DNA from: a virus
Lineage: Duplodnaviria > Heunggongvirae > Uroviricota > Caudoviricetes
DNA: 64,000 bases
IMG/VR virus record: IMGVR_UViG_2728369393_000007
Strand: one strand, 5' to 3'
Below are positions 3,997 to 56,569 of the stretch, one piece after another. Positions within the stretch are counted from its first letter, which is position 1; every line of letters begins with the position of its first letter. The notes beneath the pieces are model-generated. The model ran no database searches. It saw only the letters and a list, made by a program, of their open reading frames with translations, and was not told where the DNA came from. Made by a program: the position numbers and the translations under genes.

Positions 3997-4061
3997 GAGA
4001 CCAGGCGGGGGAGAAATCCCTCGCCACCTCTGATGTGTCAGGCATCCTCAACGCACCCGCA

Positions 4062-4530: not shown

Positions 4531-4596
4531 ATTCATCTACAATTCAGCGCAGGGCTGAACCCCTGTTGAGTAACACTGTGCCACCGGAGAAAGCCG

Positions 4597-4875: not shown

Positions 4876-4948
4876 CGTGCGGGTATTACTTCGACCTGTT
4901 CTGGTACCGGAACTCGGGCTGGTGGTCCTTAAGCCAGGTCGTGAATCC

Positions 4949-6298: not shown

Positions 6299-6984
6299 AT
6301 AACCACTATTTACAGTTTGTGCGTGAGCAGCTCATTATCGCCACCGCTGATTTGAGTGGGGCAACAAAAGGTCAGCTTGAAGCCTGGCAGGAGAATGCCA
6401 TGTTCGATACAGGGCGTTACAGGCGAAAAAAAATCCGGTACCGCGATGAAGTGACTGGAAAAATGATAACGCGGGATAATCCACCAATCCCGGGAAAGCA
6501 ATCGCTGGCGAAGGGGACGTCAATTCCTCTGGTCAGTCCGGTTGAGTTTTCGACATCATCGTGGCGGCGGGCTGTTCTGTCTCTTGAAGAACATCATAAA
6601 GCCTGGTTGTTGTGGTGTTACAGCGGGAGTATTTGTTGGGAATATCAGATCGCGATAACACAGTGGGCGTGGAATGAATTTAATACTCAATCCGGTACCA
6701 GAAAAATTGCTGGGAAAACGCAGGAACGCCTGAAAAAATTAATCTGGCTGGCGGCGCAGGCAGTAAAAGCAGAACTTTTTGGTGGGGAAGGTTATGAATA
6801 TCAGGAGCTGGCATTACTGGCGGGAGTGACAACTAAAAACTGGTCCAAAACATTTACTCGTCACTGGGTTGCAATGAAACACATTTTTCACCGACTGGAT
6901 AGTGAGGCTTTATTATTTGTAATGAGAACACGTTCAAAACAAAAGGCGGCATTTTCAAAGCAAAGTGTTGCAAAAGTAGATTGA
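6295..6984 (+). CDS. late antiterminator Q-like protein (Qin quuQ-like)
   Basis: ATGA overlap with rusA stop, GGAG RBS; position immediately upstream of a terminator and the tRNA/lysis region. Confidence 0.5.
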   Translation: MNNHYLQFVREQLIIATADLSGATKGQLEAWQENAMFDTGRYRRKKIRYRDEVTGKMITRDNPPIPGKQSLAKGTSIPLVSPVEFSTSSWRRAVLSLEEHHKAWLLWCYSGSICWEYQIAITQWAWNEFNTQSGTRKIAGKTQERLKKLIWLAAQAVKAELFGGEGYEYQELALLAGVTTKNWSKTFTRHWVAMKHIFHRLDSEALLFVMRTRSKQKAAFSKQSVAKVD

Positions 6985-7051
6985 AAGGCATATATTTCAT
7001 GCAAATCTGATATTTTGCCGATTTTGTACGTGATGGCAAAAGCAAACAAAA

Positions 7052-7075
7052 CCCGCCCACAAGCGGGTTTTTTTG
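7052..7075 (+). terminator. rho-independent terminator downstream of Q (tR'-like)
   Basis: CCCGC-CCACAA-GCGGG + T7. Confidence 0.55.
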
Positions 7076-7141
7076 TGCCACTTATCTCGGATAGACATGG
7101 TGAATGCGCTGGTGGAGGAGATAAGGGTGATTTTTGTATGC

Positions 7142-7170
7142 TTGCAACATTGATTTCGTAACGTTATTAT
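7142..7170 (+). promoter_or_regulatory. sigma70-like promoter for the tRNA cluster
   Basis: TTGCAA-17 bp-TATTAT followed by GC-rich discriminator, ~10 bp before tRNA 5' end. Confidence 0.45.
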
Positions 7171-7179
7171 CCTGCGCCC

Positions 7180-7255
7180 GGCCCTTTAGCTCAGTGGTGA
7201 GAGCGAGCGACTCATAATCGCCAGGTCGCTGGTTCAAATCCAGCAAGGGCCACCA
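7180..7255 (+). tRNA. ileZ: tRNA with CAU anticodon, Ile2 (lysidine)-type, phage ileZ-like
   Basis: Cloverleaf GGCCCTT/AAGGGCC acceptor, GCTC/GAGC D-stem, CTCATAA anticodon loop, TTCAAAT T-loop, encoded CCA. Confidence 0.8.
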
Positions 7256-7256
7256 A

Positions 7257-7332
7257 CCGCCACTAGCCATCAGGAAAGAGCGTCAACCCTTTAAGTTGAG
7301 TGTGCGAGGTTCGAGTCCCCGGTGGTGGTCCA
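7257..7332 (+). tRNA. tRNA-like sequence at the argN position, non-canonical
   Basis: 76 nt, good acceptor (one G-U), TTCGAGT T-loop and encoded CCA, but D-stem pairs only 2 bp and anticodon loop CCTTTAA has C33. Confidence 0.4.
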
Positions 7333-7345
7333 TTATCGGTATTCT

Positions 7346-7420
7346 GCGTTGTTAGCTCAGCAGGACAGAGCAATTGCCTTCTAAGCAATCGGTCACTGGT
7401 TCGACTCCAGTACAACGCGC
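7346..7420 (+). tRNA. argO: tRNA-Arg (UCU), phage argO-like
   Basis: GCGTTGT/ACAACGC acceptor, GCTC/GAGC D-stem, ATTGC-CTTCTAA-GCAAT anticodon arm, TTCGACT T-loop. Confidence 0.75.
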
Positions 7421-7435
7421 TACACTTATTTTCCC

Positions 7436-7459
7436 GGCTCGCTTTTGCGGGCCTTTTTT
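7436..7459 (+). terminator. rho-independent terminator after tRNA cluster
   Basis: 7-bp stem (one G-U) with TTTT loop followed by T6. Confidence 0.5.
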
Positions 7460-7592
7460 GTATCTGCGCCACGCCCGGCGCATACCAACCACAGAGCCTT
7501 TCGGGGGGGGAGCTTACGGAGTGGTCAGTGTGACTTTCTCTGTGGGCAGATCGCTCCCGGGCGTTGGCTCACCCACCCAAAGGAACGTCACG

Positions 7593-8025
7593 ATGTTTGG
7601 TATTTTTGGTAAAAAAAGCCCGCAGAGCGGCAACGGAAATTAAAAAGTTTGAAAAACGCGATCTGGCACAGGTGGTGATTAACGCCGCATACCTGGTGGC
7701 CTATGCAGATGGTGAATGTGAGGCTTCCTAGAAAGCGAAGATCGAACAGGTACTGCGTAATCAGCCTGCGCTGTACGCGTTTACGTCAGAAATTAATGCG
7801 ATTAGCGCAACCATTATCGGTCAGCTGGATACGAACTTTAAAACTGGTCGTCGTGCGGTGTTACGTGAGATCGAGGATGTGAAACACGATACGCGTGAAG
7901 CGGAAGATGTGCTGGATGTGGCGGTGGCCATTGCGGAGGCAGACGGCGAAATTGAGCCGGAAGAGCGCAAGGTGCTGGAAGAGATTGCCGGTGTTCTGGG
8001 TCTTCGTCTGGAGAATTACCTGTGA
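7593..8025 (+). pseudogene. TerB-like (tellurite-resistance TerB fold) gene, disrupted
   Basis: ATG 7593 with AAAGGA RBS gives MFGIFGKKSPQSGNGN*; +1 frame from 7636 continues …EIKKFEKRDLAQVVINAAYLVAYADGECEAS(TAG)KAKIEQVL…DGEIEPEERKVLEEIAGVLGL; frameshift in A7 run 7611-7617 plus in-frame TAG 7729-7731. Confidence 0.55.
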
Positions 8026-8189
8026 CGGTAAAACTGCGCCTGACTGTGGCTGCACTCCTGCTGTTTCTGGTGGTGATGGTGGATTTCACCAGCAGAATCA
8101 TGTCGGTGCTGGCGGATGGGGTGCTGGTCTGCGGCATTATGGTATTGCTGTGGCCGGTGATAAAAAGAAACAGCCTGCATAATGCTTGA
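8022..8189 (+). CDS. small membrane protein (two predicted TM helices)
   Basis: GTG start overlapping TerB stop; 55 aa; not in ORF track (<60 aa). Confidence 0.3.
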   Translation: MTVKLRLTVAALLLFLVVMVDFTSRIMSVLADGVLVCGIMVLLWPVIKRNSLHNA

Positions 8190-8390
8190 TTTTTTTGTTT
8201 GCTGTTTATTAAAAACACTTCTGCATGGTGAATCCCCCTGTGCGGTGGGGCAATCAGCAAGAAGGAATATGGGGTAATCGCGGATTCAGGTGCTGATACT
8301 GAATTCACCGGGAGGCACCCGGCACCATGCTTTGCCACAAAAGTGTTATTTCTGTTTTTCTCAAACTATCATCGTTATCCCTTTATTTTC

Positions 8391-8417
8391 GGCTGCGCAT
8401 GGCGCGGCCTTTTTTTT
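8391..8417 (+). terminator. rho-independent terminator upstream of nanS-p
   Basis: GGCTGCGC-ATG-GCGCGGCC stem-loop + T8. Confidence 0.5.
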
Positions 8418-8503
8418 ACGACCAGCCACTGGCAGATGGTCATCCTGTGATTTGATTCCGCTTCCGGCTTTTTAACTCTGTTCCTCTACACGGGAGAAAT
8501 TCG

Positions 8504-17293: not shown

Positions 17294-19231
17294 GTGACTC
17301 TTAAACGGGCCTGTTCCCTGCTGACGGTGAAATCCTTCAGTGAGGATGAACGGGTGATCACCGGGATTGCGTCAACGCCTTCTCCGGATCGGGATGGTGA
17401 CATCCTGGAGCCGGAGGGGGCGGAGTTTGGCAGTACGATCCCGTTTCTCTGGCAGCATGACCATTCCCGCCCTGTAGGCCAGTGTACGGTGCGTCGGGTC
17501 AGGGAAGGGCTGGAAATCACGGCAATGCTGGTGAAGCCGGAGCCGGGGATGCCCTCCCAGATGGCAGCCCGGCTGGATGAGGCCTGGGCTGCCATTAAGA
17601 CCGGGCTGGTCAGGGGGCTTTCTGTGGGCTTCCGGCCCCATGAATACACTTATCTGGACGGAGGCGGACTGCATTTTCTGCGCTGGGAGCTGATGGAGGT
17701 GTCTGCCGTCACCGTGCCCGCGAATGCGGAATGCACCATCCGGACCATTAAATCTTTCGACCGCCCGTTTTCTGCCGCGTCCGGCAACCGGAGACCGGTG
17801 GTGAAAATCGCATCTTCTGCCGGCGCTTCGGCACAGTCAATAACCTCTTTTCATAAGGAAAAGTCAGCAATGAATACTGGTGAACAGATTAAAAGTTTTG
17901 AAAACAAGCGTGCGGCGCTGGCAGCCTCCCTTGAGGAGATCATGAACAAAGCCGCAGAGGAAGGCCGCACACTGGATGTGGAAGAGGAAGAGCACTACGA
18001 CAACACCGCAGCGGAAATCCGTCAGGTGGATGCGCACCTGAAGCGTCTGTGTGAACTGGAAACCAGTAAGGCCGCCACGGCACAGCCGGTGAAACAGGCC
18101 GGTAACGGGAATGTGGCCACGGTGGCTTCAGCGCCGGTGATCCGTGTTGAGCAGAAACTGGATAAGGGGATTGGCTTTGCCCGCTTTGCCAAATCATTGG
18201 CTGCGGCTAAAGGTGTCCGCTCTGAGGCCCTGGAAGTGGCCCGTCGTCAGTATCCGGATGACAGCCGTCTGCACCATGTTCTGAAATCGGCGGTGGGGGC
18301 AGGGACCACCACGGACCCGCAGTGGGCAGGCAGCCTGTCTGAATATCAGGAATATGCGCAGGACTTTATTGATTACCTGCGTCCGCAGACCATTATCGGG
18401 CGATTTGGTCAGGGCGGGATCCCTGCACTTCGTCTGGTGCCGTTCAATATCCGCGTGCATGCCCAGGTGTCCGGCGGTGCTGCCGGCTGGGTGGGGGAGG
18501 GTAAGGCCAGACCCCTGACGAAGTTTGATTTTGAGTCCATCACCTTCAGTCATGCGAAGGTGTCGGCCATTGCGGTACTGACGGAAGAGCTGATCCGCTT
18601 TTCCAGTCCGGCAGCTGATGCACTGGTCCGTAATGCGCTGGCAGAAGCGGTGGTGGCGCGTCTGGACACAGACTTTGTGGACCCGAAAAAAGCTGCAGTG
18701 GCAGATGTCTCCCCGGCGTCCATCACCCATGATGTGAAGGGCACGGCATCAACCGGTAACCCGGATGCGGATGCCGAGGCCGCGTTTGGCCAGTTTGTGA
18801 CGGCAAGTCTGCAGCCCACTGGTGCTGTCTGGCTGATGTCCAGCACGAATGCCCTGGCGCTGTCCATGCGTAAAAATGCGCTGGGTCAGAAGGAATATCC
18901 GGACATGACCCTGCTGGGCGGGACCTTTCAGGGGCTTCCGGTGATTGTCTCCCAGTATGTGGGTGACCAGCTGGTACTGGTGAATGCACCGGATATTTAT
19001 CTGGCGGATGACGGCGGTGTGGCAGTGGATATGTCCCGTGAAGCGTCACTGGAAATGCAGTCTGAGCCGGGCGGCGACAGCACCACACCGTCGCCGGTGG
19101 AGCTGGTTTCCATGTTCCAGACCGGCAGCGTGGCCATCCGTGCGGAGCGCTGGATCAACTGGCGTCGTCGCCGTACTGCGGCGGTGGCGGTGATCACCGG
19201 TGTGAACTACGGCAGTGCGTCCGGCGGCTGA
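17294..19231 (+). CDS. prohead protease - major capsid protein fusion (HK97 family)
   Basis: GTG with AGGAGG RBS; N-terminal protease-like block (…GLSVGFRPHEY…EVSAVTVPAN) and C-terminal HK97-type capsid block. Confidence 0.75.
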   Translation: MTLKRACSLLTVKSFSEDERVITGIASTPSPDRDGDILEPEGAEFGSTIPFLWQHDHSRPVGQCTVRRVREGLEITAMLVKPEPGMPSQMAARLDEAWAAIKTGLVRGLSVGFRPHEYTYLDGGGLHFLRWELMEVSAVTVPANAECTIRTIKSFDRPFSAASGNRRPVVKIASSAGASAQSITSFHKEKSAMNTGEQIKSFENKRAALAASLEEIMNKAAEEGRTLDVEEEEHYDNTAAEIRQVDAHLKRLCELETSKAATAQPVKQAGNGNVATVASAPVIRVEQKLDKGIGFARFAKSLAAAKGVRSEALEVARRQYPDDSRLHHVLKSAVGAGTTTDPQWAGSLSEYQEYAQDFIDYLRPQTIIGRFGQGGIPALRLVPFNIRVHAQVSGGAAGWVGEGKARPLTKFDFESITFSHAKVSAIAVLTEELIRFSSPAADALVRNALAEAVVARLDTDFVDPKKAAVADVSPASITHDVKGTASTGNPDADAEAAFGQFVTASLQPTGAVWLMSSTNALALSMRKNALGQKEYPDMTLLGGTFQGLPVIVSQYVGDQLVLVNAPDIYLADDGGVAVDMSREASLEMQSEPGGDSTTPSPVELVSMFQTGSVAIRAERWINWRRRRTAAVAVITGVNYGSASGG

Positions 19232-25081: not shown

Positions 25082-25882
25082 ATGACACAGACTGAATCAG
25101 CGATTCTGGCGCATGCCCGGCGGTGTGCGCCAGCGGAGTCGTGCGGCTTCGTGATAAGCACCCCGGAGGGCGAACGGTACCAGCCCTGTGTGAATGTCTC
25201 CGCAGAGCCGGAGGCGTATTTTCGTATTGCACCGGAAGACTGGCTGCGGGCAGAGATGCAGGGGGAGATTGTGGCACTGGTCCACAGTCATCCCGGTGGT
25301 CTGCCCTGGCTGAGCGAGGCCGACCGGCGGCTGCAGATAAAAAGTGCACTGTCCTGGTGGCTGGTCTGCCCGGGGGACATTCATAAATTCCGCTGTGTGC
25401 CACATCTGACAGGACGGCTCTTTGAGCACGGGGTGACGGACTGTTACACGCTGTTCCGGGATGCCTACCATCTGGCGGGAATTGATATGCCGGATTTTGA
25501 GCGTGAGGATGACTGGTGGCGTAACGGTCAGAACCTTTACCTGGACAATATGGCGGTCACCGGCTTTTACCGGGTGCCCCTGTCCTCTGCACAGGCGGGC
25601 GATATCCTGCTGTGCTGCTTTGGCGCATCGGTGGCCAATCATGCCGCCATTTACTGCGGCAACGGTGAACTGCTTCACCATCTGCCTGAACAACTGAGTA
25701 AACGGGAGAGGTATTCCGAAAAATGGCAACGACGAACGCATTCAGCCTGGCGTCACCGCCACTGGCACGTATCTGCCTTCACGGGGATTTACAACGATTT
25801 GGCCGCCGCCTCAGCCTGTACCCGAACACGGCGATTGTGGGGCTGCAGGTGGATGCGGAGCAGTTTGGCGGTCAGCAGATGA
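25082..25882 (+). CDS. tail assembly protein K (JAB/MPN + NlpC/P60-like)
   Basis: …EIVALVHSHPGG… and …GVTDCYTLFRDAYHLAGI… motifs; 3' end altered by the I::J deletion. Confidence 0.75.
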   Translation: MTQTESAILAHARRCAPAESCGFVISTPEGERYQPCVNVSAEPEAYFRIAPEDWLRAEMQGEIVALVHSHPGGLPWLSEADRRLQIKSALSWWLVCPGDIHKFRCVPHLTGRLFEHGVTDCYTLFRDAYHLAGIDMPDFEREDDWWRNGQNLYLDNMAVTGFYRVPLSSAQAGDILLCCFGASVANHAAIYCGNGELLHHLPEQLSKRERYSEKWQRRTHSAWRHRHWHVSAFTGIYNDLAAASACTRTRRLWGCRWMRSSLAVSR

Positions 25883-28615
25883 CGGTGAACTACCATATCC
25901 GCGGTCGCATCATCCAGGTACCGTCAAACTATGACCCGGAAAAACGCACGTACAGCGGCATCTGGGACGGCAGCCTGAAACCGGCATACAGCAACAACCC
26001 GGCCTGGTGCCTGTGGGACATGCTGACTCACCCGCGCTACGGCATGGGAAAACGTCTGGTGGCGGCGGATGTTGACAAGTGGGCGCTGTATGCCATCGGG
26101 CAGTACTGCGACCAGACGGTCCCGGATGGTTTCAGGGGCACAGAGCCGCGGATGACCTTTAATGCGTACCTGTCACAACAGCGTAAGGCGTGGGACGTTC
26201 TCAGTGATTTCTGCTCGGCGATGCGCTGTATGCCGGTATGGAACGGCCAGACGCTGACGTTCGTTCAGGACCGCCCGTCGGATGTGGTGTGGCCGTACAC
26301 CAACTGCGATGTGGTGGTGGATGATAACGGCGTGGGGTTTCGCTACAGCTTCAGCGCCCTGAAGGACCGCCACACGGCGGTGGAGGTGAATTACACCGAC
26401 CCGCAGAACGGCTGGCAGACCTCCACTGAACTGGTGGAAGACCCGGAAGCCATACTGCGCTACGGACGCAATCTGCTGAAGATGGATGCGTTCGGCTGTA
26501 CCAGTCGCGGTCAGGCTCATCGTGCCGGACTGTGGGTGATAAAGACCGAACTGCTGGAAACGCAGACGGTGGATTTCACGCTCGGTCACAGGGGCTGCGT
26601 CACACACCCGGTGACATTATTGAAATCTGTGATAACGACTATGCCGGGACCATGACCGGCGGACGTATCCTGTCCATCGATGCCGCCAGCCGCACCCTGA
26701 CACTGGACCGTGAGGTGACCCTGCCGGAGACAGGTGCCGCCACGGTGAACCTGATTAACGGCAGCGGTAAGCCGGTGAGCGTGGCCATCACTGCACACCC
26801 CGCGCCGGACCGGATACAGGTCAGCACCCTGCCTGATGGTGTGGAGACATACGGTGTATGGGGACTCTCCCTGCCGTCACTGCGTCGTCGCCTGTTCCGC
26901 TGTGTCTCCATCCGGGAAAACACGGACGGCACCTTTGCCATCACGGCGGTGCAGCACGTACCGGAAAAGGAAGCCATCGTGGATAACGGGGCCAGCTTTG
27001 AGCCGCAGTCAGGCACCCTGAACAGCGTCATCCCTCCGGCAGTGCAGCACCTGACGGTGGAGGTGAGCGCAGCTGACGGTCAGTATCTGGCGCAGGCGAA
27101 ATGGGACACGCCGCGGGTGGTGAAGGGTGTGCGCTTCAGCCTGCGCCTGACCAGCGGAAGCGGAGAAGACAGCCGTCTGGTGACCACCGCCATCACCGCG
27201 GATACAGAGCACCGTTTCAGCGGTCTGCCGCCGGGGAATACACCCTGACGGTCAGGGCGATTAACAGTTATGGCCAGCAGGGCGAACCGGCCACCACCAC
27301 GTTCAGGATTTACGCACCTGCGGCACCCGCCTCGATTGAGCTGACGCCGGGTATTTTCAGATAACGGCGGTCCCGCGTCTTGCGGTGTATGACCCGACGG
27401 TACAGTTTGAATTCTGGTTCTCAGAAAAACGCATCACGAACACGGCACAGGTGGAAACCTCTGCCCGTTATCTGGGTAGCGGCAGTCAGTGGAGTGTATC
27501 CGGCCCGCACATTAAGCCCGGGAAGGATTTCTGGTTTTACGTGCGCAGCGTCAACCTGGTGGGGAAATCTGCGTTTGTGGAAGCCAGTGGCCGGGCCAGC
27601 AATGATGCAGAAGGGTATCTGGGGCTGTTTCGGGAAAAAATAGGAAAACTGCATCTGGCTCAGGGGCTGTGGGAGCTGATAGACAACAGCCAGCTTGCGG
27701 ATGAGATGGCGGAGATGAAGACCACCATCACCGAAACCCGCAATGAAATCACACAGACGGTCAGTAAAACGCTGGAAGACCAGAGCGCCACCATTCAGCA
27801 GATACAGCGCGTGCAGTCAGGCAGAAGAGAACGCTGCAAATGCTGACACTTCAGCAGGGGATGCATCGGAGTCAGCCCGGCAGGCGGCAGAAAGTGCAGC
27901 CTCAGCAAAGCAGTCAGAGGAGGCGTCCTCGTCCTCGGCCTCTGAGGCCGCTCAAAAAGCCAGTGAGTCATCACAAAGTGCAGCAGAAGCTGAATTGTCA
28001 AGAAAGACGGCAGAAAGTGCAGCCGGTAATGCAGCCAGGGATGCAACGACCGCAGCAGAAAAAGCCCGGGAGTCAGCAGAAAGCGCACAGTCAGCGGAAC
28101 AAAGCAGGATAGCGGCGGAAGAAGCCGTAAACAGAATCCCCACAGTGGTGGGGCCACCCGGGCCAAAGGGAGAACCGGGGCCCGCGGGTCCTCAGGGGCC
28201 GAAGGGAGATAAAGGAGAGCGGGGAGAGACCGGGCTGACAGGAAATGCAGGTCCACAGGGTCCAAAGGGAGATACCGGTGCGGCAGGCCCGGCAGGCCCA
28301 CAGGGACCGAAAGGAGAAACAGGTGCGGCTGGCCCGGTGGGGGCAACCGGACCTCAGGGGCCGAAAGGCGACCCGGGGGAGACACAAATACGGTTCCGTC
28401 TGGGGCCGGGAAACATTATTGAGACAAACAGCAATGGCTGGTTCCCGGATACAGATGGCGCACTCATCACCGGACTGACCTTTCTTGACCCCAAAGATGC
28501 CACACGGGTTCAGGGTTTTTTTCAGCATTTGCAGGTCAGGTTTGGTGACGGGCCGTGGCAGGATGTCAAGGGGCTGGATGAAGTGGGCAGTGATACAGGC
28601 AGAACAGGAGAATGA
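25723..28615 (+). pseudogene. I::J fusion and frameshifted host-specificity protein J / collagen-like tail fibre
   Basis: First 33 codons are gene I (MATTNAFSLASPPLARICLHGDLQRFGRRLSLY) fused in frame to J interior (PNTAIVGLQVDAEQFGG…); frameshifts near 26586, 27237, 27349 and ~27830; 3' part carries Gly-X-Y collagen-like repeats. Confidence 0.65.
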
Positions 28616-28616
28616 C

Positions 28617-28886
28617 ATGAATATTTTGAGAAAGCTTATGGAGCGTCTGTGTGGTTGCGAAAAGCATGATGACCGTGAAAACGGGGAGTTACTTACAGCA
28701 CAACTGCGACTGGGACCGGCAGACATTCTGGAGTCCGATGAGAATGGCATTATCCCGGAGCAGGACAGGGTAATCACGCAGGTGGTGATACTGGATGCGG
28801 ATAAAAAGCAGATACAGTGCGTGGTAAGACCGCTGCAAATCCTGCGTGCTGACGGGAGGTGGGAAAATATTGGCGGAATGAAATAG
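28617..28886 (+). CDS. hypothetical tail-fibre-associated protein
   Basis: 89 aa MNILRKLMERLCGCEKHDD…; 3' end and downstream terminator recur at 29593 and 33095. Confidence 0.4.
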   Translation: MNILRKLMERLCGCEKHDDRENGELLTAQLRLGPADILESDENGIIPEQDRVITQVVILDADKKQIQCVVRPLQILRADGRWENIGGMK

Positions 28887-28945
28887 CCGACAGCTTCACA
28901 AAACCGGAGTCCGGCTCCGGTTTTTGTTGTCATGTATAGGGGATA
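28749..28945 (+). repeat. junction repeat R1, copy a (gene 3' end plus terminator hairpin)
   Basis: Related to 29593-29700 and 33095-33228; contains CCGGAG-TCCGG-CTCCGG hairpin + T5. Confidence 0.7.
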
Positions 28946-29105
28946 TTTGTTATTAGAGTGTGAAGTAATAAACATGTTAATACGATGGAGTGAAGGATGC
29001 CTTTAAGGAGCAGTGATATGTCCATCTTGTTCCCTGGAGGGGGAATCATAAATTCTGATTGCGACCGAGGCATGGAACACTACTGTAGTTCAGGGAAGTT
29101 CGGCG

Positions 29106-29648
29106 ATGAAGCTCATTCTTGCGACGCGTAATTATTATCTGGAATATGGTTTGCGTTTGTTACTGAAAGGATGCCGTGTAATTCTGGCTCAAGAATTTTT
29201 TATGCCGGAGAATCGCAGGGTTATTCTGGATAGTAAAGAATCCTGGTTAATAATCTGTGATAGTCAGTTGGGCCATTTAATGCGCAGCATGTTTCAGGGA
29301 CGCCGTTTTATTCAGCTGGATCTGGAAGCGTTGAAAGGGGGACATGATATACATAATGCTGTGCGTAACAGATTGTGGACCTGGAACAAAAAAGCACGGG
29401 CACTGACGATGTCAGAGATGGTGGTGATGTTTGGATATATCTACCGTCAGTTGCGTCCGTTCCATCTCGCCAGTGAGATGAGGGTAAACATAAAAACAGT
29501 TAACACTTTCCTGTATTCAGGGCTGGCGAAAAATGGGCTCAAAAGAAGTAGTGTAAGGTTGCTGGCAATTTCTGAGAACAAGCGAATAGGGCATTATTCC
29601 GGAGCAGGACAGGGTAATCACGCAGGTGGTGATACTGGATGCGGATAA
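29106..29648 (+). CDS. LuxR-type HTH regulator-like protein, 3' end replaced by repeat R1
   Basis: C-terminal region LTMSEMVVMFGYIYRQLRPFHLASEMRVNIKTVNTFLYSGLAKNGL resembles GerE/LuxR HTH; last ~18 codons read through repeat R1 copy b. Confidence 0.35.
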   Translation: MKLILATRNYYLEYGLRLLLKGCRVILAQEFFMPENRRVILDSKESWLIICDSQLGHLMRSMFQGRRFIQLDLEALKGGHDIHNAVRNRLWTWNKKARALTMSEMVVMFGYIYRQLRPFHLASEMRVNIKTVNTFLYSGLAKNGLKRSSVRLLAISENKRIGHYSGAGQGNHAGGDTGCG

Positions 29649-29700
29649 AAAGCCGATACAGTGCGTGGTGAGGCCGCTGCAAATTCGGTGTGCTGATGGG
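29593..29700 (+). repeat. junction repeat R1, copy b (partial)
   Basis: Near-identical to 28749-28850. Confidence 0.65.
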
Positions 29701-29776
29701 ACGAGGGAAAAATTTGTGGATGACATTTGTTGTGGACCTTTAAGTCTGGAGTTCAAATTAAAACAGGGAGCTTTAT

Positions 29777-29899
29777 TATGCCATTAACCTCAGATATTAA
29801 TTCATCTTCGTTCCATCTTGGAATGGAATTTGTAAAAAAACGCCACAGGCATCAGGAATATAAGAAGGTGTCTGTGGTTGACAGGTTTCAGATGACTTG
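29777..29899 (+). pseudogene. possible N-terminal stub of an NleG-like effector gene
   Basis: AGGGAG RBS, 40 codons MPLTSDINSSSFHLGMEFVKK… resembling the MP…SS N-termini of the two nleG genes here, then stop. Confidence 0.3.
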
Positions 29900-30129
29900 A
29901 GGGCGTCTTTATGTAACTGAATTTTTCTGTGGAGATGCTGTCTGAAAATATTTGATTAAAAACGGAAGCTAAGTTAAATAGTAAGTTTATTTTTTGAGCT
30001 TAGGTGTATGTGTTTAGAATTTTTCTGGTGTGTTTGTTTTGTGGGGGATTTTAGGAAAAATATATTAATCCTTATTAATAATAGCCGTCATCCATTTCAG
30101 CTATTATTTTAAAATAAACAAGTTAAAGC

Positions 30130-31452
30130 TTAGACTCTTGTTTCTTGGATTATATCAACGGTATCAACATAATTTGATGGGTTATGATGTGGTGAGTTAT
30201 TGCTTTCGATATTGATGACCACATCCTCTGGATTTGGATGCCGTTGTCCAACAGATACACCTTCTTCCATTGCGCGTATATCAGCCCCTGTGGCATGTTC
30301 AATATCTGCTTTATTTGGGAAAATGGCACCTTCTCTTGCATGCCACCATATACGAGGATAGTCAGTGAATCTGGCCTCTCCAAACTCGGCCTTGTTTAAA
30401 TCAGCCAGTCCAAGAGTAGTACCTGCCCACCATAAAATAGTGTCTGGCTTTAATCCGGGGGTATTATACTGTATGGCATGCCCCGCTGCTTGCCCAACCA
30501 TTGCACCGATATGAGGACTTAACATTGGATCTGTACCAGTAAATCTGGATACTGCAAATCCCCCTACAGCACCAAGCGCATTTGCGGCAGCATTGGTAAG
30601 AACGGCATATTTAGTATTAGGGTTATCTAAATCCCACTTGAAATGTGCGCCAAACTCCAGCCCTAGAGTTGCCTGTAGTGGAGATGCACCATATTTAAAA
30701 TCTGCTTCTCCCGGTCTGATCACCCACTCTTCAGTATAATTTGCTTTGGGGCCATCAGGAGTAAGAGGAGTTTCTCCAACAAGCTTCCATCCATTTTCAG
30801 TTTTGACTATAGGAAGTTCCACACCATGATTACGAACTACTTGAGCTGTTAATCCAAACCATGGTATTGGGTCTTTTGACGCGGTGGTTACCGTCGAAGT
30901 AGTGGCTGATGCAATAGTGGATGCAGCAGTCGATACAGTGGTTGGTATATTGCTGTTGCTTAATGCATTTTTTAATGGACCAGGAAGGTCTTTAAAATTA
31001 ATACCTATTTCATCATGCAAAGGGAATATCTGTAAAAAATAATTACCTGATGTAGGATGAATATCTGGTTTTACAATGTTTAGCTGGACACCATATTTAC
31101 CAGAGATACCCGGAACGGTGCTGGGTATTTCTAATGCCATCTGAGAGACATTGAATAAACCAAACATATCCAATGCTTTTTTTCCTGCAGAGCCTTCTTC
31201 AAGATGAGGTGCAAGATATTTATCCAGCCCAGAGAGCAGACCTTCATCTTTTATCAAGCTCAGTAGAGCTGTTGTTTCACCGCATTCCGGTGCATGTCGC
31301 TGCATATCCTCTGGGATATGAACAACAAATCCCGTTTCGCATCCATTAGGTAATTCGGATTGCGGTATTTGTGTAGGGGACGTTTGTTCTGCGTGATGAT
31401 GTCGATTGTTTTGTGTGGTGATTCCGGATGTTACGATCGGTTGAATGTTCAT
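30130..31452 (-). CDS. nleA: type III secreted effector NleA/EspI
   Basis: 440 aa MNIQPIVTSGITTQNN… with C-terminal PDZ-binding ETRV. Confidence 0.9.
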   Translation of the reverse strand: MNIQPIVTSGITTQNNRHHHAEQTSPTQIPQSELPNGCETGFVVHIPEDMQRHAPECGETTALLSLIKDEGLLSGLDKYLAPHLEEGSAGKKALDMFGLFNVSQMALEIPSTVPGISGKYGVQLNIVKPDIHPTSGNYFLQIFPLHDEIGINFKDLPGPLKNALSNSNIPTTVSTAASTIASATTSTVTTASKDPIPWFGLTAQVVRNHGVELPIVKTENGWKLVGETPLTPDGPKANYTEEWVIRPGEADFKYGASPLQATLGLEFGAHFKWDLDNPNTKYAVLTNAAANALGAVGGFAVSRFTGTDPMLSPHIGAMVGQAAGHAIQYNTPGLKPDTILWWAGTTLGLADLNKAEFGEARFTDYPRIWWHAREGAIFPNKADIEHATGADIRAMEEGVSVGQRHPNPEDVVINIESNNSPHHNPSNYVDTVDIIQETRV

Positions 31453-31835
31453 GATAAATCCTTATTGCATGTTTATATCCATTAATAATATCAATCCATT
31501 GATATTATTAGTGTCACATATCCGATGTGGACAGCTTTAATATATAGCTGTTTGAATGCTTGATTGATGTGACTTAGATCTCAAAATTAAGTTGTTAAAT
31601 TTACCAGTTTATCGCTTGAACACTTAAAATAAATTATAAATCCTTCTGTTATTGTTTTTATAATTCAAATTATTGTTGGTTGTATAACTTGATTACATCT
31701 TTACTCTAAGTGTTATAAATATTTTATACTGATATTAGTTTTATTATATATATTCTTAATGAAAATGAGCATAAAACTAAGACATATAATGCTTGGCAGC
31801 TTTATGCTCTTCTGATTGGCTGTATGTTTGATGAC

Positions 31836-32040
31836 AAAAAATTAGCGCAAGAAGAAAAAATCACCTTGCGCTAATGCTCTGTCTCAGGTCACTAATCACA
31901 CCTAACTCATTGATTAATTGTGACTCTAAATGTAGTGTTTTGTCGCGTTTTGCAGTATGTTATTTAATCTATTATATGAATAACATAATGATTTTTAATG
32001 TATTTTTGTAATTTACTCTCCTTCTGACATGGAAGTTGTT
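31836..32040 (+). repeat. junction repeat R2, copy a
   Basis: TGATGACAAAAAATTAGCGCAAGAAG…GCGCTAATGCTCTG…AGGTCACTAAT recurs at 35503-35700. Confidence 0.5.
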
Positions 32041-32107
32041 CGTTCAAAATCTTATTAAATATCAAGTTGTTAAATCTGGTAAGTCATTATTGGTCAAAAT
32101 AAAATCA

Positions 32108-33094
32108 TTATCCGATTTCAATTTTGTCCCACTCCCGCTCGCGACTGTCCCTATAATGCGCCGCCATTGAATCAGATTTATGTCCAAGAAGACGTTGTGC
32201 AAACTTGTAGCCAATCTGGTTCCGATATAGCCTCGCGGACAGACTACGTAGTTCATGAAATGTCGGTGGGTCTCCATCAAACGAGATCCCGGATGCATTT
32301 CGCGCCTTTGTTAAATACCGTGATACTGTGGCTGGAGAAAGTGGTTCGTGATAGGTTGATGCGATTATTGTTTCACTGCTGCTGGCCTCCCTGCATTTCT
32401 GTAGTGTATCAACCAGTGAGATGTCGAGTGCGTCAATGGTTAGAGCCAGCGGAATGGCAATTTTGGCTCCTGTTTTACTCTGTCCAATGTGAAGATGACC
32501 ATCGTTTATGTCTGACCACTTCATTCTGCACAAATCGCCCACTCTCTGCCCTGTAACGACAGCTAAATCCATTGACAGCCTCAGCCAGATGGGGAGGTGC
32601 TCAGCAGCATGGTAAATAGCGACATACTCATTAGCTGTCAGCCTTGAGCGCCTTACTTCTGACTTTGCTGCACGGGTTGTTGTTACTGGATTCGTTGCCA
32701 CATGCCCCTCGGCTATTGCCCCTCGAAAAACGTCAACAAGGGTTGACCTGATTACTCTTGCGGAAACCGCTTTACCTTCTGCGACGTAGGTGTTTAGCAT
32801 TGCTGCCACCTCTTTCGTTGATATGTCAGTGAGCGGTTTGTCCGGCAATTTTCTTCGAATTGCCCTGATTTTGCTGGCGTAGTCGAGTAATGTTTTCGGC
32901 TTGCTCCCCCTCTAGCTGAGGATTGTTTCATATCGATCAAGCCACGTATGAAGAGTGATTGAGTCAGTGCCTTTAACCCTGTCCAGCAATGATTCGTGCC
33001 CACTTTCGCTGAAAAGCTCAATGTTGGTGTGAATGCTTCTGAAATTGCTACTCTTCTGTCTCTTCCCAGCCCGAACTCTTTTTTCGTCCTCGGG
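32108..33094 (-). pseudogene. int: lambda-type tyrosine integrase, decayed
   Basis: C-terminal catalytic half intact (…HELRSLSARLY…LLGHKSDSMAAHYRD…); upstream part has a 1-bp frameshift and in-frame TAG (plus 32912-32914); N-terminus replaced at ~33095 by repeat R1. Confidence 0.75.
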
Positions 33095-33228
33095 TCAGTG
33101 TGTAGTAAGACCGCTGCAAATCCTGCGTGCTGACGGGAAGTGGGAAAATATTGGCGAAATGAAGTAACCCGATAGCTTCACAAAAACCGGAGTCCGGCTC
33201 CGGTTTTTGTTGTCATGTACGGGGGATG
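33095..33228 (+). repeat. junction repeat R1, copy c
   Basis: Matches 28812-28945 including terminator hairpin. Confidence 0.7.
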
Positions 33229-33273
33229 TCTGTTAGGAATAATTAGATAGGTTTATTTTGAAGGTTGAAATGT

Positions 33274-34185
33274 ATGTTATCGCCCTCTTCTATAAATTTG
33301 AGATGTTCATGGAATTCTTTAACCAGAAACCTGACTTCGCCTGATAATCGTGTTTTATCCTCTGTAAGGGATGCTGCTGTTCACTCTGATAGCGGGACGC
33401 AAGTAACGGTTGGCAACAGAACATATCGTGTTGTGGTCACTGATAATAAGTTTTGCGTTACAAGAGAAAGTTATAGTGGTTGTTTTACTAATCTGTTGCA
33501 CAGGTTGGGATGGCCTAAGGGAGAGATTAGCAGAAAAATTGAGGCTATGCTGAATACATCGCCAGTGAGCACGACTATAGAAAGAGGCTCTGTTCATTCG
33601 AACAGACCTGATTTACCTCCAGTGGATTATGCGCAGCCGGAGTTACCTCCAGCGGATTATACTCAGTCAGAGTTGCCGAGGGTTAGCAACAATAAATCAC
33701 CCGTGCCAGGTAATGTTATTGGTAAAGGTGGTAATGCTGTCGTGTATGAAGATATGGAAGATACAACAAAAGTGTTGAAGATGTTTACTATATCTCAAAG
33801 CCATGAAGAGGTGACAAGCGAAGTTCGTTGTTTCAATCAGTATTATGGTTCCGGGAGTGCAGAGAAAATATATAATGATAATGGAAATGTTATTGGTATT
33901 AGAATGAATAAAATAAATGGGGAATCTCTTTTGGATATTCCATCATTACCAGCACAAGCTGAACAGGCTATTTACGATATGTTTGACAGACTGGAGAAAA
34001 AAGGAATTCTTTTTGTTGATACAACAGAAACAAATGTTTTATATGATCGTATGAGAAATGAATTTAATCCAATAGATATATCATCTTATAATGTTTCTGA
34101 TATTTCATGGAGTGAACATCAAGTCATGCAATCTTATCACGGAGGAAAGCTGGATCTTATTAGTGTAGTATTAAGTAAGATATAA
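33274..34185 (+). CDS. nleH: type III secreted effector NleH (OspG-like kinase)
   Basis: MLSPSSINLRCSWNSLTRNLTSPDNRVLSS… kinase core, C-terminal SKI. Confidence 0.9.
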   Translation: MLSPSSINLRCSWNSLTRNLTSPDNRVLSSVRDAAVHSDSGTQVTVGNRTYRVVVTDNKFCVTRESYSGCFTNLLHRLGWPKGEISRKIEAMLNTSPVSTTIERGSVHSNRPDLPPVDYAQPELPPADYTQSELPRVSNNKSPVPGNVIGKGGNAVVYEDMEDTTKVLKMFTISQSHEEVTSEVRCFNQYYGSGSAEKIYNDNGNVIGIRMNKINGESLLDIPSLPAQAEQAIYDMFDRLEKKGILFVDTTETNVLYDRMRNEFNPIDISSYNVSDISWSEHQVMQSYHGGKLDLISVVLSKI

Positions 34186-34250
34186 TATTTTTATCCAGAT
34201 ATATTAGTTGCAATAATGTTTATGGATTTATTTGTTAAGGGGGTTTTGAT

Positions 34251-34820
34251 ATGTTACCAACAAGTGGTTCTTCAGCAAATCTTTATTCATGGATGTATGT
34301 ATCAGGAAGAGGTAACCCTTCGACTCCGGAATCAGTAAGTGAGCTTAATCATAATCACTTTCTTTCTCCTGAATTACAAGATAAACTTGATGTTATGGTC
34401 TCTATATATTCATGTGCCAGAAATAATAATGAGCTTGAGGAAATTTTTCAAGAGCTAAGTGCTTTTGTAAGTGGGCTGATGGATAAGAGAAATAGTGTAT
34501 TTGAGGTGAGAAATGAAAATACTGATGAGGTTGTCGGAGCGCTGAGGGCGGGAATGACGATAGAGGATAGGGATAGTTATATCAGGGATCTTTTTTTTCT
34601 GCATTCATTGAAAGTAAAAATTGAGGAAAGTAGACAAGGCAAAGAAGATTCGAAATGTAAAGTTTATAATCTGCTATGTCCGCATCACTCTTCAGAGCTA
34701 TATGGTGATCTACGAGCAATGAAATGCCTCGTGGAAGGATGCAGTGATGATTTTAATCCTTTTGATATTATTAGGGTACCAGATCTTACTTACAACAAAG
34801 GATCTTTACAATGTGGATGA
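34251..34820 (+). CDS. nleF: type III secreted effector NleF
   Basis: 189 aa MLPTSGSSANLYSWMYVSGRG… ending LQCG. Confidence 0.9.
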   Translation: MLPTSGSSANLYSWMYVSGRGNPSTPESVSELNHNHFLSPELQDKLDVMVSIYSCARNNNELEEIFQELSAFVSGLMDKRNSVFEVRNENTDEVVGALRAGMTIEDRDSYIRDLFFLHSLKVKIEESRQGKEDSKCKVYNLLCPHHSSELYGDLRAMKCLVEGCSDDFNPFDIIRVPDLTYNKGSLQCG

Positions 34821-34866
34821 TTAGAGGCCTGTGAGCCTGTTTAGGATTCTGTGTAAATGCCTTTTC

Positions 34867-35501
34867 TTAAAAGTGACCGTCAAGACGGTCATCAAACTCG
34901 ATAATAAAGCGGCTCATTGCCATTCGCCAGTCCCTTAACGGCATTGTCCATTTCTGTGACGCGGCCTGGATTGCCAGCCACACCACTTTTTTTACTGACT
35001 CGTCCGTCGGGAACACCTTGCGTTTCCTGATGGCATGCCGGATCACACTGTTCAGCGACTCGATGGCGTTCGTTGTGTAGATCACTTTGCGGATATCTGC
35101 CGGATAAGCGAAAAACGTCGCCAAGTTAGTCCAGTTTGACAGCTAGCACCGGCTTATCTGCGGATAGCGGCAGTCCCAGGCCGCAGCAAACGCTTCCAGT
35201 GCCTGCTGGCCTGCCTCTTCTGTGGGAGGCTAATCGCTTTCAGGTCGCGAGTGACGGCTTTGTATTCCTTCCATGACACGAAGCGCATGCTGTTGCGCAC
35301 CATATGCACGATGCATAACTGGATGCGGGCCTCTGGGAATTCTTTCAGGCCATCCACACAGGCGATGAGGATATCGTTCAGACCGCGGTTTTTCAGTTCA
35401 GTCAGCACATTGAACCAGAAATTCGCCCCTTCATTTTCGGCCAGCCGCATCCCCAGGAGCTCTTTCTGACCTGCGATATTGATGCCCAGTGCTAGGAACA
35501 T
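34867..35501 (-). mobile_element. IS256-family transposase remnant (N-terminally truncated, internally disrupted)
   Basis: Two ORF pieces (…GINIAGQKELLGMRLAENEGANFW… and …YTTNAIESLNSVIRHAIRKRKVFPTD…); truncated where repeat R2 copy b begins. Confidence 0.65.
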
Positions 35502-35502
35502 T

Positions 35503-35700
35503 TTTATGACAAAAAATTAGTGCAAGAAGACAAAGAATCGCCTTGCGCTAATGCTCTGAAACAGGTCACTAATATCATCTAAATAGTTGACTCATAGTGA
35601 CAGCATGTGTTGTGTCTTGCAGTATTATATAGCCTATTATTTAGATTGAAGCCATCATAATCTATTGATGTTAATGGTTTTTTATTGTTTGTTGTTCGGC
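35503..35700 (+). repeat. junction repeat R2, copy b
   Basis: See 31836-32040. Confidence 0.5.
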
Positions 35701-36976
35701 TTTTTATACTAATTTGAGCGAAACAAAAAGATAAAAAGTTGTTTTTCGTGTCTTTAAGTGATACCAGATGGTATTGCGCTAAATGTACCAATGGGTATAC
35801 CAAGAGCACTAAAAACAAAGGGGCAACCACTTTGTAACCCCTTGATTATTTGCAGAAGCGCAGAAAATCGAACTCTGGAACCCTTTCGGGGCATCCTTTT
35901 TCAAGAATGAAGAAAAAAATAACTAAAAAATCAAGTTGTTAGGAAGTTATTCATGGCTAGTGTACCAACTCTTTTCTGGGCTAATAGCTATGATTTGTTT
36001 GTATTATTTGTCTCTGTCTCTATTATTTTTGACATCCATGCGACTTCTGATATTGATAATCTCAGTTGTGGAGTTCTGTCTGCGCTTCCGGGAGGACGCA
36101 TATCAAAACTACAGGATCTTCTGTTAAACACTGTAAAGCCATCTACATTGCATGTTGTTGAGTCTAAGATACAATTTTTAGTAGATGATTTATCTGCTAT
36201 AGGCCTAGATATTTCAGGTTGATGCCAAGTGTGTCCTGAAAAAATACTTTTTATTGAAAATGGCATTTTTATCCTCACATTATGTCTTTCTCTTATAGTG
36301 CAATTTAATGTATTTAGAAACATTAAACTATGAATCTAAAAAGGCTACGCAGAGTACTGTTACACTTTAACAAATCATATTTACCACTCTGGAAATGGGA
36401 TGGCTGGTTCATAAAATAATGAGTCTTTTTCAACGGTTGTTACATTGGTGTACTGATGATTATGCCTTGTCGCTAAGAGCTACCATAACCGTACAGCGTG
36501 ATTCATCCATGGCGAATAAATCGACTGATAAATCCCCCTGAGTTTCAGCTCTTGCTGTTGGACCTTGCCCGTTTCGCTATGGAACGCGTACCAGCTAGAG
36601 AATATTATTCGTTCTCCTCCAATGTTACGCAAGTTTTGTAAACGGTAACCAATCGTGATTAGTCCTGCATGTAACGGACATCAAGCTGTCTGGTTGATTT
36701 TTATTGCCAGCAGTTCGAGAGAGCAGACAACTGCGTCCGATGGAAAAATGGGCACGACAGGGTATTCAGGCAACCTCGCTGAGGAGGCTTATGGTACAGA
36801 TTGTAATGTGAAGTATAAAACGTTAAAAATTCCATTTTAGAAACTAAATAGCTGTAATATAAGTTCGATCTAATCTACTATTTTGACAGACAGATTGTAT
36901 CAAGAATTAGGGAGTATGAAATAGATGGCAATAACTAGTAAAATTAATTTTGCAACATTTAAATCGAACCATACAG

Positions 36977-46810: not shown

Positions 46811-47530
46811 CTAACCAAATCTGTTGATATTGAATGGTACAGATGAGATTACTTTTGACTGGATATAGAGCAGCGCCATTCCCTCTTTTTCGATGCTCCA
46901 TGGCTGATAGTTGGGATTGTCTGATAAGACCATGATCTTGCTTCCAATTTTTTGAAGTCGTTTGACGTAACATTCGCCATCAAAGCAAAATGCATAAATG
47001 CCATCGCCGTCAAAGTAAGTTACTGTTTTATCTAAAAACAGTAAGTCTCCCGGGGAGATTGTTGGGGCCATGCTGTCCCCTCTGGCGTTACCGATTTCTA
47101 TGTTCTTGAATGCTCTGTTACCGACCAGGCGGCGGGCATATTCAGGATCAAGTTCTATTGAGCGTACTACATCAATTAGATCTCCCCGTACATGAGTTCC
47201 GTCGCCGCAACTGAATTCAACATCCAGTACATTGAACACAACGCTGTCTTCTCTTGTATGGTGTTTTTCAGCTGAAGAGAATGTCGATGAGGCATCTTCA
47301 CCCAAAAACCAGGATTGTGGATAACCACTAATTACTGATAGCTGTGCAAGTTTATCGCTTCTGGGAAACGTCTTTCCTGTAGTCCAGTATTGTACTGATT
47401 GCGCGCTTACACCCAGCTTACGGGCTAGTTCAGCCTGACTCCAGCCTTTCGTTTTCAGCATCATTGCTATCCGATTTTCTGTGCTTTTTATATTCTTCAT
47501 GGTGAGTTCCTGTCGAAGCTTTATACACAT
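46811..47530 (-). CDS. cI: CI-type repressor (HTH_XRE + S24 LexA-like peptidase domain)
   Basis: …GWSQAELARKLGVSAQSVQYW… HTH and …GDSMAPTISPGD…VKRL… Ser/Lys dyad; start may be the internal ATG at 47500. Confidence 0.8.
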   Translation of the reverse strand: MCIKLRQELTMKNIKSTENRIAMMLKTKGWSQAELARKLGVSAQSVQYWTTGKTFPRSDKLAQLSVISGYPQSWFLGEDASSTFSSAEKHHTREDSVVFNVLDVEFSCGDGTHVRGDLIDVVRSIELDPEYARRLVGNRAFKNIEIGNARGDSMAPTISPGDLLFLDKTVTYFDGDGIYAFCFDGECYVKRLQKIGSKIMVLSDNPNYQPWSIEKEGMALLYIQSKVISSVPFNINRFG

Positions 47531-47632
47531 AAATATTAACTTGATTTTAGTGTATTCGATCCTTTTGAAACTTGCATGTTAATTTATTCTTGATGTATTC
47601 TTGATTTGTAAAGTTAATGTTGGAGCTGCGCT
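47531..47632. promoter_or_regulatory. divergent cI/cro promoter-operator region
   Basis: AT-rich intergenic with repeated TTCTTGAT / ACTTGATTTT motifs. Confidence 0.45.
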
Positions 47633-47890
47633 GTGATAAAACTGAATGATTACGACATGTTGCGTAAATTGATCCCTCAAAACGCCATAGCGAGATACAT
47701 CGGTGTTACGCCACAAGCGGTGAATCTGTGGTTTTCTAAAAACTCCGTTCCTTCTCGTTTTGTTTTACGGGTGTGTGAATTGGTTGAATGGAAGGTTACT
47801 CCGCATGGGTTAAGACCTGATCTATACCCTTATCCCGAAGATGGAATTCCTGATTCGTTACGAAAATCAAACGGTATTACCAGAGATTAA
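47633..47890 (+). CDS. Cro-like / YdaS-family DNA-binding protein
   Basis: GTG with GGAG RBS; …AIARYIGVTPQAVNLWFSKNSVP… HTH. Confidence 0.55.
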   Translation: MIKLNDYDMLRKLIPQNAIARYIGVTPQAVNLWFSKNSVPSRFVLRVCELVEWKVTPHGLRPDLYPYPEDGIPDSLRKSNGITRD

Positions 47891-47971
47891 AGACTGACTG
47901 TCACAAGCAGTAATTCACGATGAATACGTTTTGGCGTGAGTTCTGAAATGTCATCCTCAAGGAGCAATCAG

Positions 47972-55114: not shown

Positions 55115-55768
55115 ATGTTTAATACTGTAAAAATATCCAGTTGTGAGTTAATCAACGCCGACTGCCTGGAATTTATCCGGTCGTTACCCGAAAATTCTGT
55201 TGACCTGATAGTCACGGACCCGCCGTACTTTAAAGTGAAGCCTGAGGGCTGGGATAACCAGTGGACGGGTGATGAGGATTACCTGAAATGGCTGGACCAG
55301 TGTCTGGCGCAGTTCTGGCGGGTGCTGAAACCTGCCGGAAGTCTTTACCTGTTCTGTGGCCATCGCCTGGCATCTGACATTGAAATCATGATGCGTGAAC
55401 GCTTCAGTGTGCTGAACCATATTATCTGGGCGAAGCCGTCCGGACGCTGGAACGGGTGCAACAAGGAAAGCCTGAGGGCGTATTTCCCCGCCACAGAGCG
55501 CATTCTGTTCGCGGAACATTATCAGGGGCCGTATCGTCCGAAAGATGCCGGGTATGAGGCGAAGGGCAGGGCACTGAAACAGCATGTGATGGCTCCGCTG
55601 ATTGCTTACTTTCGTGATGCGCGTGCTGCCCTGGGGATAACGGCAAAACAGATAGTGGATGCCACAGGAAAGAAAAACATGGTGTCGCACTGGTTCAGTG
55701 CCAGTCAGTGGCAGCTACCGAACGAAAGCGATGAAGTCACCGTTACTGAAGCGGGCGCTGCAGGGTAA
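55115..55768 (+). pseudogene. DNA methyltransferase (DPPY motif), C-terminally truncated
   Basis: …DLIVTDPPYF… catalytic motif present but no C-terminal SAM-binding FxGxG block; ORF ends 13 nt before tail-gene remnant. Confidence 0.55.
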
Positions 55769-55781
55769 ACGGAGGTAATAC

Positions 55782-56460
55782 ATGTTTCTGAAAACAGAAC
55801 AATTTGAATATAACGTGTCCGTCACTTTCCGAATTGTCTGCGCTGCAGCGGTTTGATTATATAAAGTTTTTTTCAGACGCAAAACAACAGGAGACAACGA
55901 AGCATGATGTCGTGCACATTAACAGCGATATCTGGAAACGGCATCCCTGCTTGTGGCGATGTCGCTATGGCATTCCCATTCCCTCAAAGGCACTCTGGCC
56001 TCTCCGGAGACAGAGATGCAGCAGATCCGCCGTGAAGTGATGCTGGGATGGCCTGCTGATGCACTGAATCAGGCAACGAACGGGTTTTATCTTTCAGGTA
56101 TGGATAAACCGGCACGATGCCGATCCTGAACCAACCGGGAAAACAGAAGCGACTGAGCCGGTAACATCAAAAAAGCATTCGAAGGCGAGCTGAACTTTGT
56201 CCTGAAACTGGCGCGTGAGATGGGGAGAGCCGACTGGCGCGCCATGCTTGCCGGGATGACATCCACCGAATATGCCGACTGGCGACGTTTTTACTGCACG
56301 CATTATTTTCAGGATACCCAGCTGGATATGCATTTTTCCGGGCTGACGTACGCCGTACTCAGCCTGTTTTTTTGCGATCCGGATATGCATCGGCGGATTT
56401 CAGCCTGTTCGCTCCGGAGGCAGAGGAAGGGCAGGCGGAGACGCCGACGAAAATGATGTA
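55782..56460 (+). pseudogene. tail assembly chaperone G/T remnant
   Basis: GGAGG RBS, MFLKTEQFEYN… then frameshifts; T-frame segment …MLAGMTSTEYADWRRFYCTHYFQD… at 56220-56456. Confidence 0.5.
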
Positions 56461-56569
56461 CTTGATGCAGAGGCGGCGGGCCTCGCCGGTGGAGTCCGTT
56501 TCGGGGAGGAGGGAAGGAGGTTGTGACAGTTATTGATGGTATCAGAGGACATTTCAGGAGGTGACCACG

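Follow-up and report, generated by a model that had tools for sequence, protein, structure and literature searches.

Related systems

The J protein of phage lambda (TipJ) is the host-specificity protein, found in the central tail fibre. The window, by which we mean the whole stretch of 64,000 nucleotides that was analysed, contains two homologous J copies, and the tail-gene synteny M-L-K-I-J-lom-tail fibre is recognised. The motif of interest aligns with LGNYRLTVRA in lambda, but the J copies read LP(P/L)GEYTLTVRA. Copy 1 is a partial member only, as it lacks the first ~211 codons and the last ~280, including the receptor-binding end. In the independent assembly PVZZ01, the product of this remnant has Pfam matches to Phage-tail_3, Ig_J and Ig_J_second.

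The single-base frameshifts seen in both copies also resemble a technical system, the homopolymer errors of assemblies built only from PacBio RS II or early ONT long reads, which are most severe in repeats and at the ends of contigs. They share the bias towards the loss of one base, the restriction to G/C runs away from the record origin and the dependence on run length. They are likewise clustered at joined contig ends, missing from independent assemblies and prone to break open frames. Nothing essential differs from this known artefact, and the present case is unusual only in that two paralogous runs are hit in one assembly.

In terms of prophage organisation, a Stx2a phage integrated in PPompW of O145:H25 has already been described (Nakamura et al. 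2021, PMC8112680). The window matches this description, with an effector-rich PPompW (nleA, nleH1-2, nleF, nleG, espM1) that holds the second Stx2a phage copy inside. A “defective P01 prophage” was reported in PMC5567499 and repeated in PMC8112680, the latter with a “large deletion” in the second copy and a stx2A “inactivated by multiple indels” in sister strain 176.

Source of the window

The window derives from CP014670.1 (E. coli O145:H25 strain CFSAN004177), reverse-complemented and spanning the origin of the record. Positions 27359-35700 of CP014670.1, reversed, are an exact substring match in the window from 20032, and window 43247-55731 is the exact reverse complement of CP014670.1 1-12485. 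Window position 55731 is position 1 of the record, placing the circularisation join at 55731..55732 (no strand), and the remaining 8.3 kb, beyond 55732, should therefore come from the opposite end of the circular record. Exact look-ups with two ORF fragments from this part matched no entry, presumably owing to their annotation as pseudogenes. In record coordinates, window 27233-27236 corresponds to ~28496-28499 and window 63798-63800 to ~5183263-5183265, the latter reckoned across the origin.

CFSAN004176 and CFSAN004177 are separate isolates (2003 and 2004, respectively), both sequenced on PacBio RS II (P4/C2) and assembled with HGAP3/Quiver, with contig closure by dot plot; that paper gives no description of short-read polishing for either of them (PMC5567499). 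CP014670.1 is missing from the RefSeq complete-genome collection, which does include the sister record NZ_CP014583.1. In a megablast search of all complete RefSeq E. coli genomes, NZ_CP014583.1 (O145:H25 CFSAN004176, hereafter the sister) was the sole near-perfect match, though with a few gaps.

The two J copies

Copy 1 (25819..27816, plus strand) is a remnant covering J codons ~212-879, located in the effector-carrying prophage PPompW. In-frame fusions connect it with K on its upstream side and with a tail-fibre gene on its downstream side. The upstream deletion, of 1.44 kb, removed I and the start of J and created the junction to K. The downstream deletion, of 2.0 kb, took away the C-terminal part of J, the lom gene and the beginning of the fibre gene, with a junction to the tail-fibre gene. 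Thus the I gene and both termini of J are deleted. Both large deletions are common to the sister strain, and PVZZ01 equals the window across the first one and as far as the beginning of the second. The degradation of copy 1 is real and is due to these two large deletions.

Copy 2 starts with the ATG at 61749 and leaves the end of the window (61749..64000, plus strand), within the Stx2a-like prophage that is integrated in PPompW. In the sister assembly, both copies of this prophage encode an intact J protein (1159 aa), annotated as gpJ. The tail genes 5' of it (55733..61748, plus strand), identified by alignment to the sister, comprise the V 3' end, G/T, tape measure, M, L, K and I. This segment lacks ~70 bases when compared to the sister, with a density peak that adjoins the record origin.

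Regarding the surroundings, a type III secretion effector island occupies ~30100-41400 at the end of prophage 1 (nleA, nleH1-2, nleF, nleG, espM1 and a DUF1076/NleG-like gene), with IS remnants in between, and is followed by the integrase of the Stx2a-like phage at 41434-42720. IS600 copies were found at ~14860-16130 and 1-368. In prophage 1, one IS600 interrupts the large terminase gene and is another genuine inactivating lesion of this prophage.

The shared site

The window contains exactly two occurrences of the 12-mer GGGAATACACCC (27234-27245 and 63798-63809), where 0.01 would be expected by chance. Its duplication carries no independent information, because the stretches that host it are 93-95% identical paralogues from lambdoid tail-gene clusters. 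The original prediction placed this 12-mer in both J copies, each reading GNTP*, and both search and translation bear this out. The shifted frames terminate as ...FSGLPPGNTP* in copy 1, at the TGA in 27246..27248 (plus strand), and as ...FSGLPLGNTP* in copy 2, where the 12-mer and the TGA span 63798..63812 (plus strand).

The frame taken as intact, on the contrary, does not hold. It had been given as GNYTLTVRA, while intact relatives read GEYTL and lambda J reads LGNYRLTVRA, so that the expected sequence is a mix of two. At the homologous site the lambda J sequence is LALGNYRLTVRA. Intact relatives have either CCG CCG GGG GAA TAC ACC CTG (PPGEYTL) or CCG CTC GGG GAA TAC ACC CTG (PLGEYTL). The sister reads CTG CCG CCG GGG GAA TAC ACC CTG (LPPGEYTL) at the copy-1 site and CTG CCG CTC GGG GAA TAC ACC CTG (LPLGEYTL) at the copy-2 site. 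The window is one G shorter than the first of these. The true frameshift site of copy 1 is the G4 run at 27233..27236 (plus strand), which is G5 in the RefSeq sister and in PVZZ01000002.1. That of copy 2 is the G3 run (GGG) at 63798..63800 (plus strand), which is G4 in both copies of the prophage in the sister. The 12-mer itself (27234..27245 in copy 1, plus strand) is native and undamaged, (G)GG GAA TAC ACC C, encoding G-E-Y-T. The one-base-longer version of the site is present in more than 600 complete genomes.

The true coding at the shared site is G-E-Y-T-L in both copies. Of the “same lesion” proposed for them, the matching GNTP* ends stand, but the change behind these is not one mutation. 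It consists of two separate homopolymer contractions, in copy 1 from G5 to G4 and in copy 2 from G4 to G3, at homologous runs of unequal length, and these belong to the same class as the private single-base lesions.

Two other origins of the site were considered and rejected. The loss of a T from AAT-TAC is ruled out, as relatives read GEYTL, lambda reads GNYRL and the corresponding GGGAATTACACC allele has no exact match. A synthetic version of the GGGAATTACACC allele, set in the sequence context of copy 2, had no exact match among 5,426 complete E. coli genomes; it came closest to records that bear the lesion, with one gap, and after these to the GEYTL allele. A chimeric G3A2T1 consensus, formed from mixed G4A2T1 and G3A2T2 paralogue reads, is ruled out by the same search.

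Private lesions

The private single-base lesions are present where they had been reported, namely at 26584-26585 and 27349-27351 in copy 1 and at 59561, 59570, 63958-63959 and many other places in copy 2. When compared to the sister and PVZZ01 assemblies, copy 1 has GG instead of GGG at 26584..26585 and GGG instead of GGGG at 27349..27351 (both plus strand). At 63958-63959, copy 2 has CC where the sister has CCC. Within J, the single-base deletions of copy 2 follow positions 61896, 62095, 63359, 63797 and 63957. Restoring these five bases gives 752 uninterrupted codons, and restoring the three Gs of copy 1 gives 667 open codons.

Comparison with other assemblies

Overall, the window and the sister differ by ~2 substitutions in ~61 kb, with ~96 bases missing from the window and 14 extra, nine of which are one 9-bp block. 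In window 1-53246 there is 1 substitution and 15 indel events, of which 13 are single-base deletions in the window, one is a single-base insertion and one is a 9-bp insertion. There are 5 indel events in window 54154-55732. In 55733-64000, there is 1 substitution and the gaps total 76 bases, of which the window lacks 73.

Alignment to an intact J had been put forward as a check on the lesions, and in the sister J the runs are full-length at every site of both copies. At the shared site, full-length runs are found in copy 1 of the sister, in the copy at the start of its own record and in the identical phage at yecE. A second comparison was made with PVZZ01000002.1, an independent assembly of the same prophage. 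Over 8.3 kb the two are identical except for four G-runs, with 0 substitutions, and the window is the shorter one in all four. Three of these four are the copy-1 J sites; for the fourth, two further assemblies agree with PVZZ01000002.1.

The errors run in both directions, given that a capsid G-run at 17416 is short in the sister and not in the window. At 17412-17416 the window has G5 and the 645-codon capsid/protease ORF (17294-19231) is open, while the sister has G4 and is annotated as frameshifted in NZ_CP014583.1. Here the window looks closer to the truth than the RefSeq sister.

Two more differences were observed in this part of the window. The G-run at 20787, at the 3' end of the portal gene, is G4 in the window and G5 in four other assemblies. 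The shortfall shifts the last few codons, and the ORF continues to 20885, past the start of the tape-measure gene. At 16461-16469, within a terminase fragment, the window has 9 extra bases, GGGAAGCCG, which form a near-tandem duplication.

Dependence on base type, run length and proximity to the origin

Across window 1-53246, the fraction of G/C runs that are shortened grows from 0.4% at length 3 to 3.2% at length 4 and 6.7% at length 5. None of the 666 A/T runs of at least 4 bases is shortened in the same region, and all deletions away from the origin fall in G/C runs. The rate for G/C runs of length 4 reaches 23% in 60-64 kb and 42% in 58-60 kb. The density of indels rises from ~0.3 to ~20 per kb approaching 55731|55732, and multi-base deletions of non-repeat sequence are seen only within ~1 kb of the origin. 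The point at which a circular record is linearised has no biological meaning.

The sister shows this behaviour as well, at its own origin. Its phage copy equals the yecE copy over 15 kb and then accumulates ~50 indels in the last 5 kb of the record. After its origin, when compared to its own second phage copy, there are 13 indels and 0 substitutions in 12 kb, with 12 of the 13 within the first 3 kb. Several of these indels fall on runs that are also affected in the window.

The record join and the second Stx2a-like prophage

Around the join at 55731|55732 (53100-58000), the second Stx2a-like prophage has a DNA-methyltransferase gene directly joined to the tail gene V. Approximately 16.5 kb of phage is skipped at this point, including tRNAs, stx2AB, lysis, packaging and head genes. 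In sister strain 176 the “deletion” is ~12.9 kb, has a different extent and coincides exactly with the origin of its own record. Furthermore, the stx2A “nonsense mutations” of the sister lie in its indel-ridden last 5 kb. When compared to the account in PMC8112680, then, the large deletion and the stx2A indels coincide with record origins and with the error gradient. From the sequence evidence, the “defective P01 prophage” of the literature appears to be an artefact of a contig end or of closure.

A real inversion by recombination between prophages at 55731|55732 is not supported, as the joined genes come from non-equivalent parts of the phage and the junction is exactly position 1 of the record.

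A separate rearrangement was noted at 53247-54152, where 906 bp have the opposite orientation to that in the sister and in the yecE Stx2a phage, with 100% identity and 0 indels. It is present in the deposited record, at CP014670.1 1580-2485. The inverted span begins exactly at an in-frame ATG inside a DUF968 gene (Met29) and ends with the stop codon of that gene. Its 301-aa product was found on no other contig, and its ends carry no inverted repeats. Despite its codon-exact boundaries, this inversion probably reflects an error of assembly close to the end of the contig.

The shared run in other genomes

Four other, unrelated public assemblies also lack one base of the shared G-run, with the lesion 61-mers found in 2 + 2 other records. 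In 2014C-3061 (NZ_CP027548.1) both J types have the short run, with no other frameshift in either of them. Exact lesion-bearing 61-mers are also present in O157:H7 F8492 and O121:H19 16-9255. The assembly of 16-9255 was made with Unicycler from ONT and Illumina reads, and its J is broken by several frameshifts. In total, ~4 of ~3,400 J places are affected.

For comparison, a C4 run (after window 63359) was one base short in 0 of 1,353 genomes, a contrast with the shared run that is not statistically significant. The other comparator, the 27349 site, has almost no comparable places and hence no power. These counts are suggestive, not significant, of a shared G-run that is hotter than average. 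It may be a systematic technical hot spot; a biological one is much less likely.

Explanations for the frameshifts

All single-base frameshifts in both copies, the shared one included, are very probably consensus-calling errors, that is, undercalled G/C homopolymers in an assembly with no short-read polishing. This judgement is drawn from sequence comparison, and we infer read-consensus error, not mutation in the isolate, as the cause. The original prediction left the private indels as either true decay or assembly errors. Assembly error is now strongly supported for them and extends to the shared site, whereas true point decay is not borne out.

The proposed mechanism is that a consensus made only from long reads (HGAP3/Quiver) would undercall a single G or C in homopolymers. 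Copy 2 lies 6-8 kb from the contig-end join, which sits inside a 45-kb prophage duplicated in the genome, and consensus quality is expected to collapse near the join because of this duplication. Copy 1 is 28 kb from the join and would be affected as part of a gene family with many genomic members. Among the G/C runs of the stretch common to both copies, the homologous G-run is the longest (G5 in copy 1, G4 in copy 2), and for this reason would be the one likeliest to be undercalled in both, mimicking a shared lesion.

The common stretch has 42 homologous G/C runs of at least 3 bases. With the global rates, 0.07 coincident hits are expected (P ~7%), and several-fold more with the locally raised rate of copy 1. 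The shared site is the sole G5 run of the copy-1 remnant, and hence the likeliest place for a coincidence. Copy 1 has 3 deletions in 770 bp, against 0.52 expected (Poisson P = 0.016). We tentatively attribute this local excess to polishing trouble in a many-copy gene.

The first reading of the shared site, a single frameshift that arose once and became common to both J copies through an origin before their divergence or through gene conversion, is next to impossible, even though both copies have the same GNTP* end and the same 12-mer. Both lesions are missing from the near-identical genome of CFSAN004176, and the copy-1 lesion is also absent from PVZZ01000002.1, which contradicts the claim that the lesion predates the divergence of the copies. 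The lesions must be far younger than the copies, because the sister, 2 substitutions away in ~61 kb, does not have them, while the J copies are ~6% apart. As for its spread by gene conversion, the contracted runs are unlike in length and immediate flank (CCGCC-GGGG against CCGCTC-GGG). Paralogue-specific bases adjoin the run, within 3 nt upstream (CCG vs CTC) and at +15 and +24 downstream (ACGGTC vs ACAGTC), and a conversion tract between those 3 nt upstream and 15 nt downstream would need to be shorter than ~17 nt. Around the lesion, no tract of identity above the background identity of the copies was found. These adjoining bases rule out gene conversion. Nor did GNYTL, the supposed ancestral state, match any of the 5,426 genomes exactly when set in the context of copy 2.

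If the lesions are separate, they could still be genuine. G/C runs are true slippage hot spots, and CFSAN004177 could have gained real slipped-strand losses of one base in its prophage tail genes after the split from CFSAN004176, for example under a transient mismatch-repair defect, with the same run hit independently in both J copies. The two are indeed different isolates, copy 1 was already non-functional and so free to decay, the affected runs are of the slippage-prone G/C type and a few other assemblies also have a shortened run at this site. We nevertheless consider such recent decay unlikely, since it would have to yield ~96 missing bases next to 2 substitutions, no A/T-run events away from the origin, a gradient centred exactly on the linearisation point of the record with multi-base non-repeat deletions adjoining it, and the same pattern in the sister assembly at its own, different, origin. 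The occurrences in other genomes allow for a broader version, in which the CCG/CTC-GGGG-GAA run is a real and recurrent slippage hot spot, the host-range protein J is switched off by it in several E. coli lineages and the lesions of the window are genuine; this is very unlikely. It is also highly improbable that the G-run at J codon ~684 is a recurrent slippage site acting as a contingency-like switch that inactivates prophage J across E. coli lineages. The exact lesion 61-mers in 2014C-3061 (both J types), F8492 and 16-9255 would fit such a switch, as would the comparator C4 run at 0 of 1,353 genomes. Phase-variable tracts, however, are long, typically 7 or more, and this run has only 4-5 G, far below the known ones. 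The shifted frame stops after 4 codons (GNTP*) with no alternative product, and the run thus has neither the long tract nor the meaningful alternative product of phase variation or programmed frameshifting. Only ~4 of ~3,400 J places are affected, and one of these, the J of 16-9255, is shredded by several frameshifts.

Implications

With undercalled homopolymers as the preferred explanation, there is no shared ancient lesion, gene conversion or ongoing point decay left to explain in the biology of these J copies. Two cautions follow from the case. Independent undercalls at the longest homologous homopolymer can mimic a frameshift common to paralogues, and the lesion itself had been misplaced through a comparison with lambda. 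Frameshift claims near the origins of CP014670.1 and of the sister record merit distrust. This extends to the published “defective second Stx2a prophage” and to the “stx2A nonsense mutations”. If those defects are artefacts, both of these HUS isolates may carry two complete stx2a phages.
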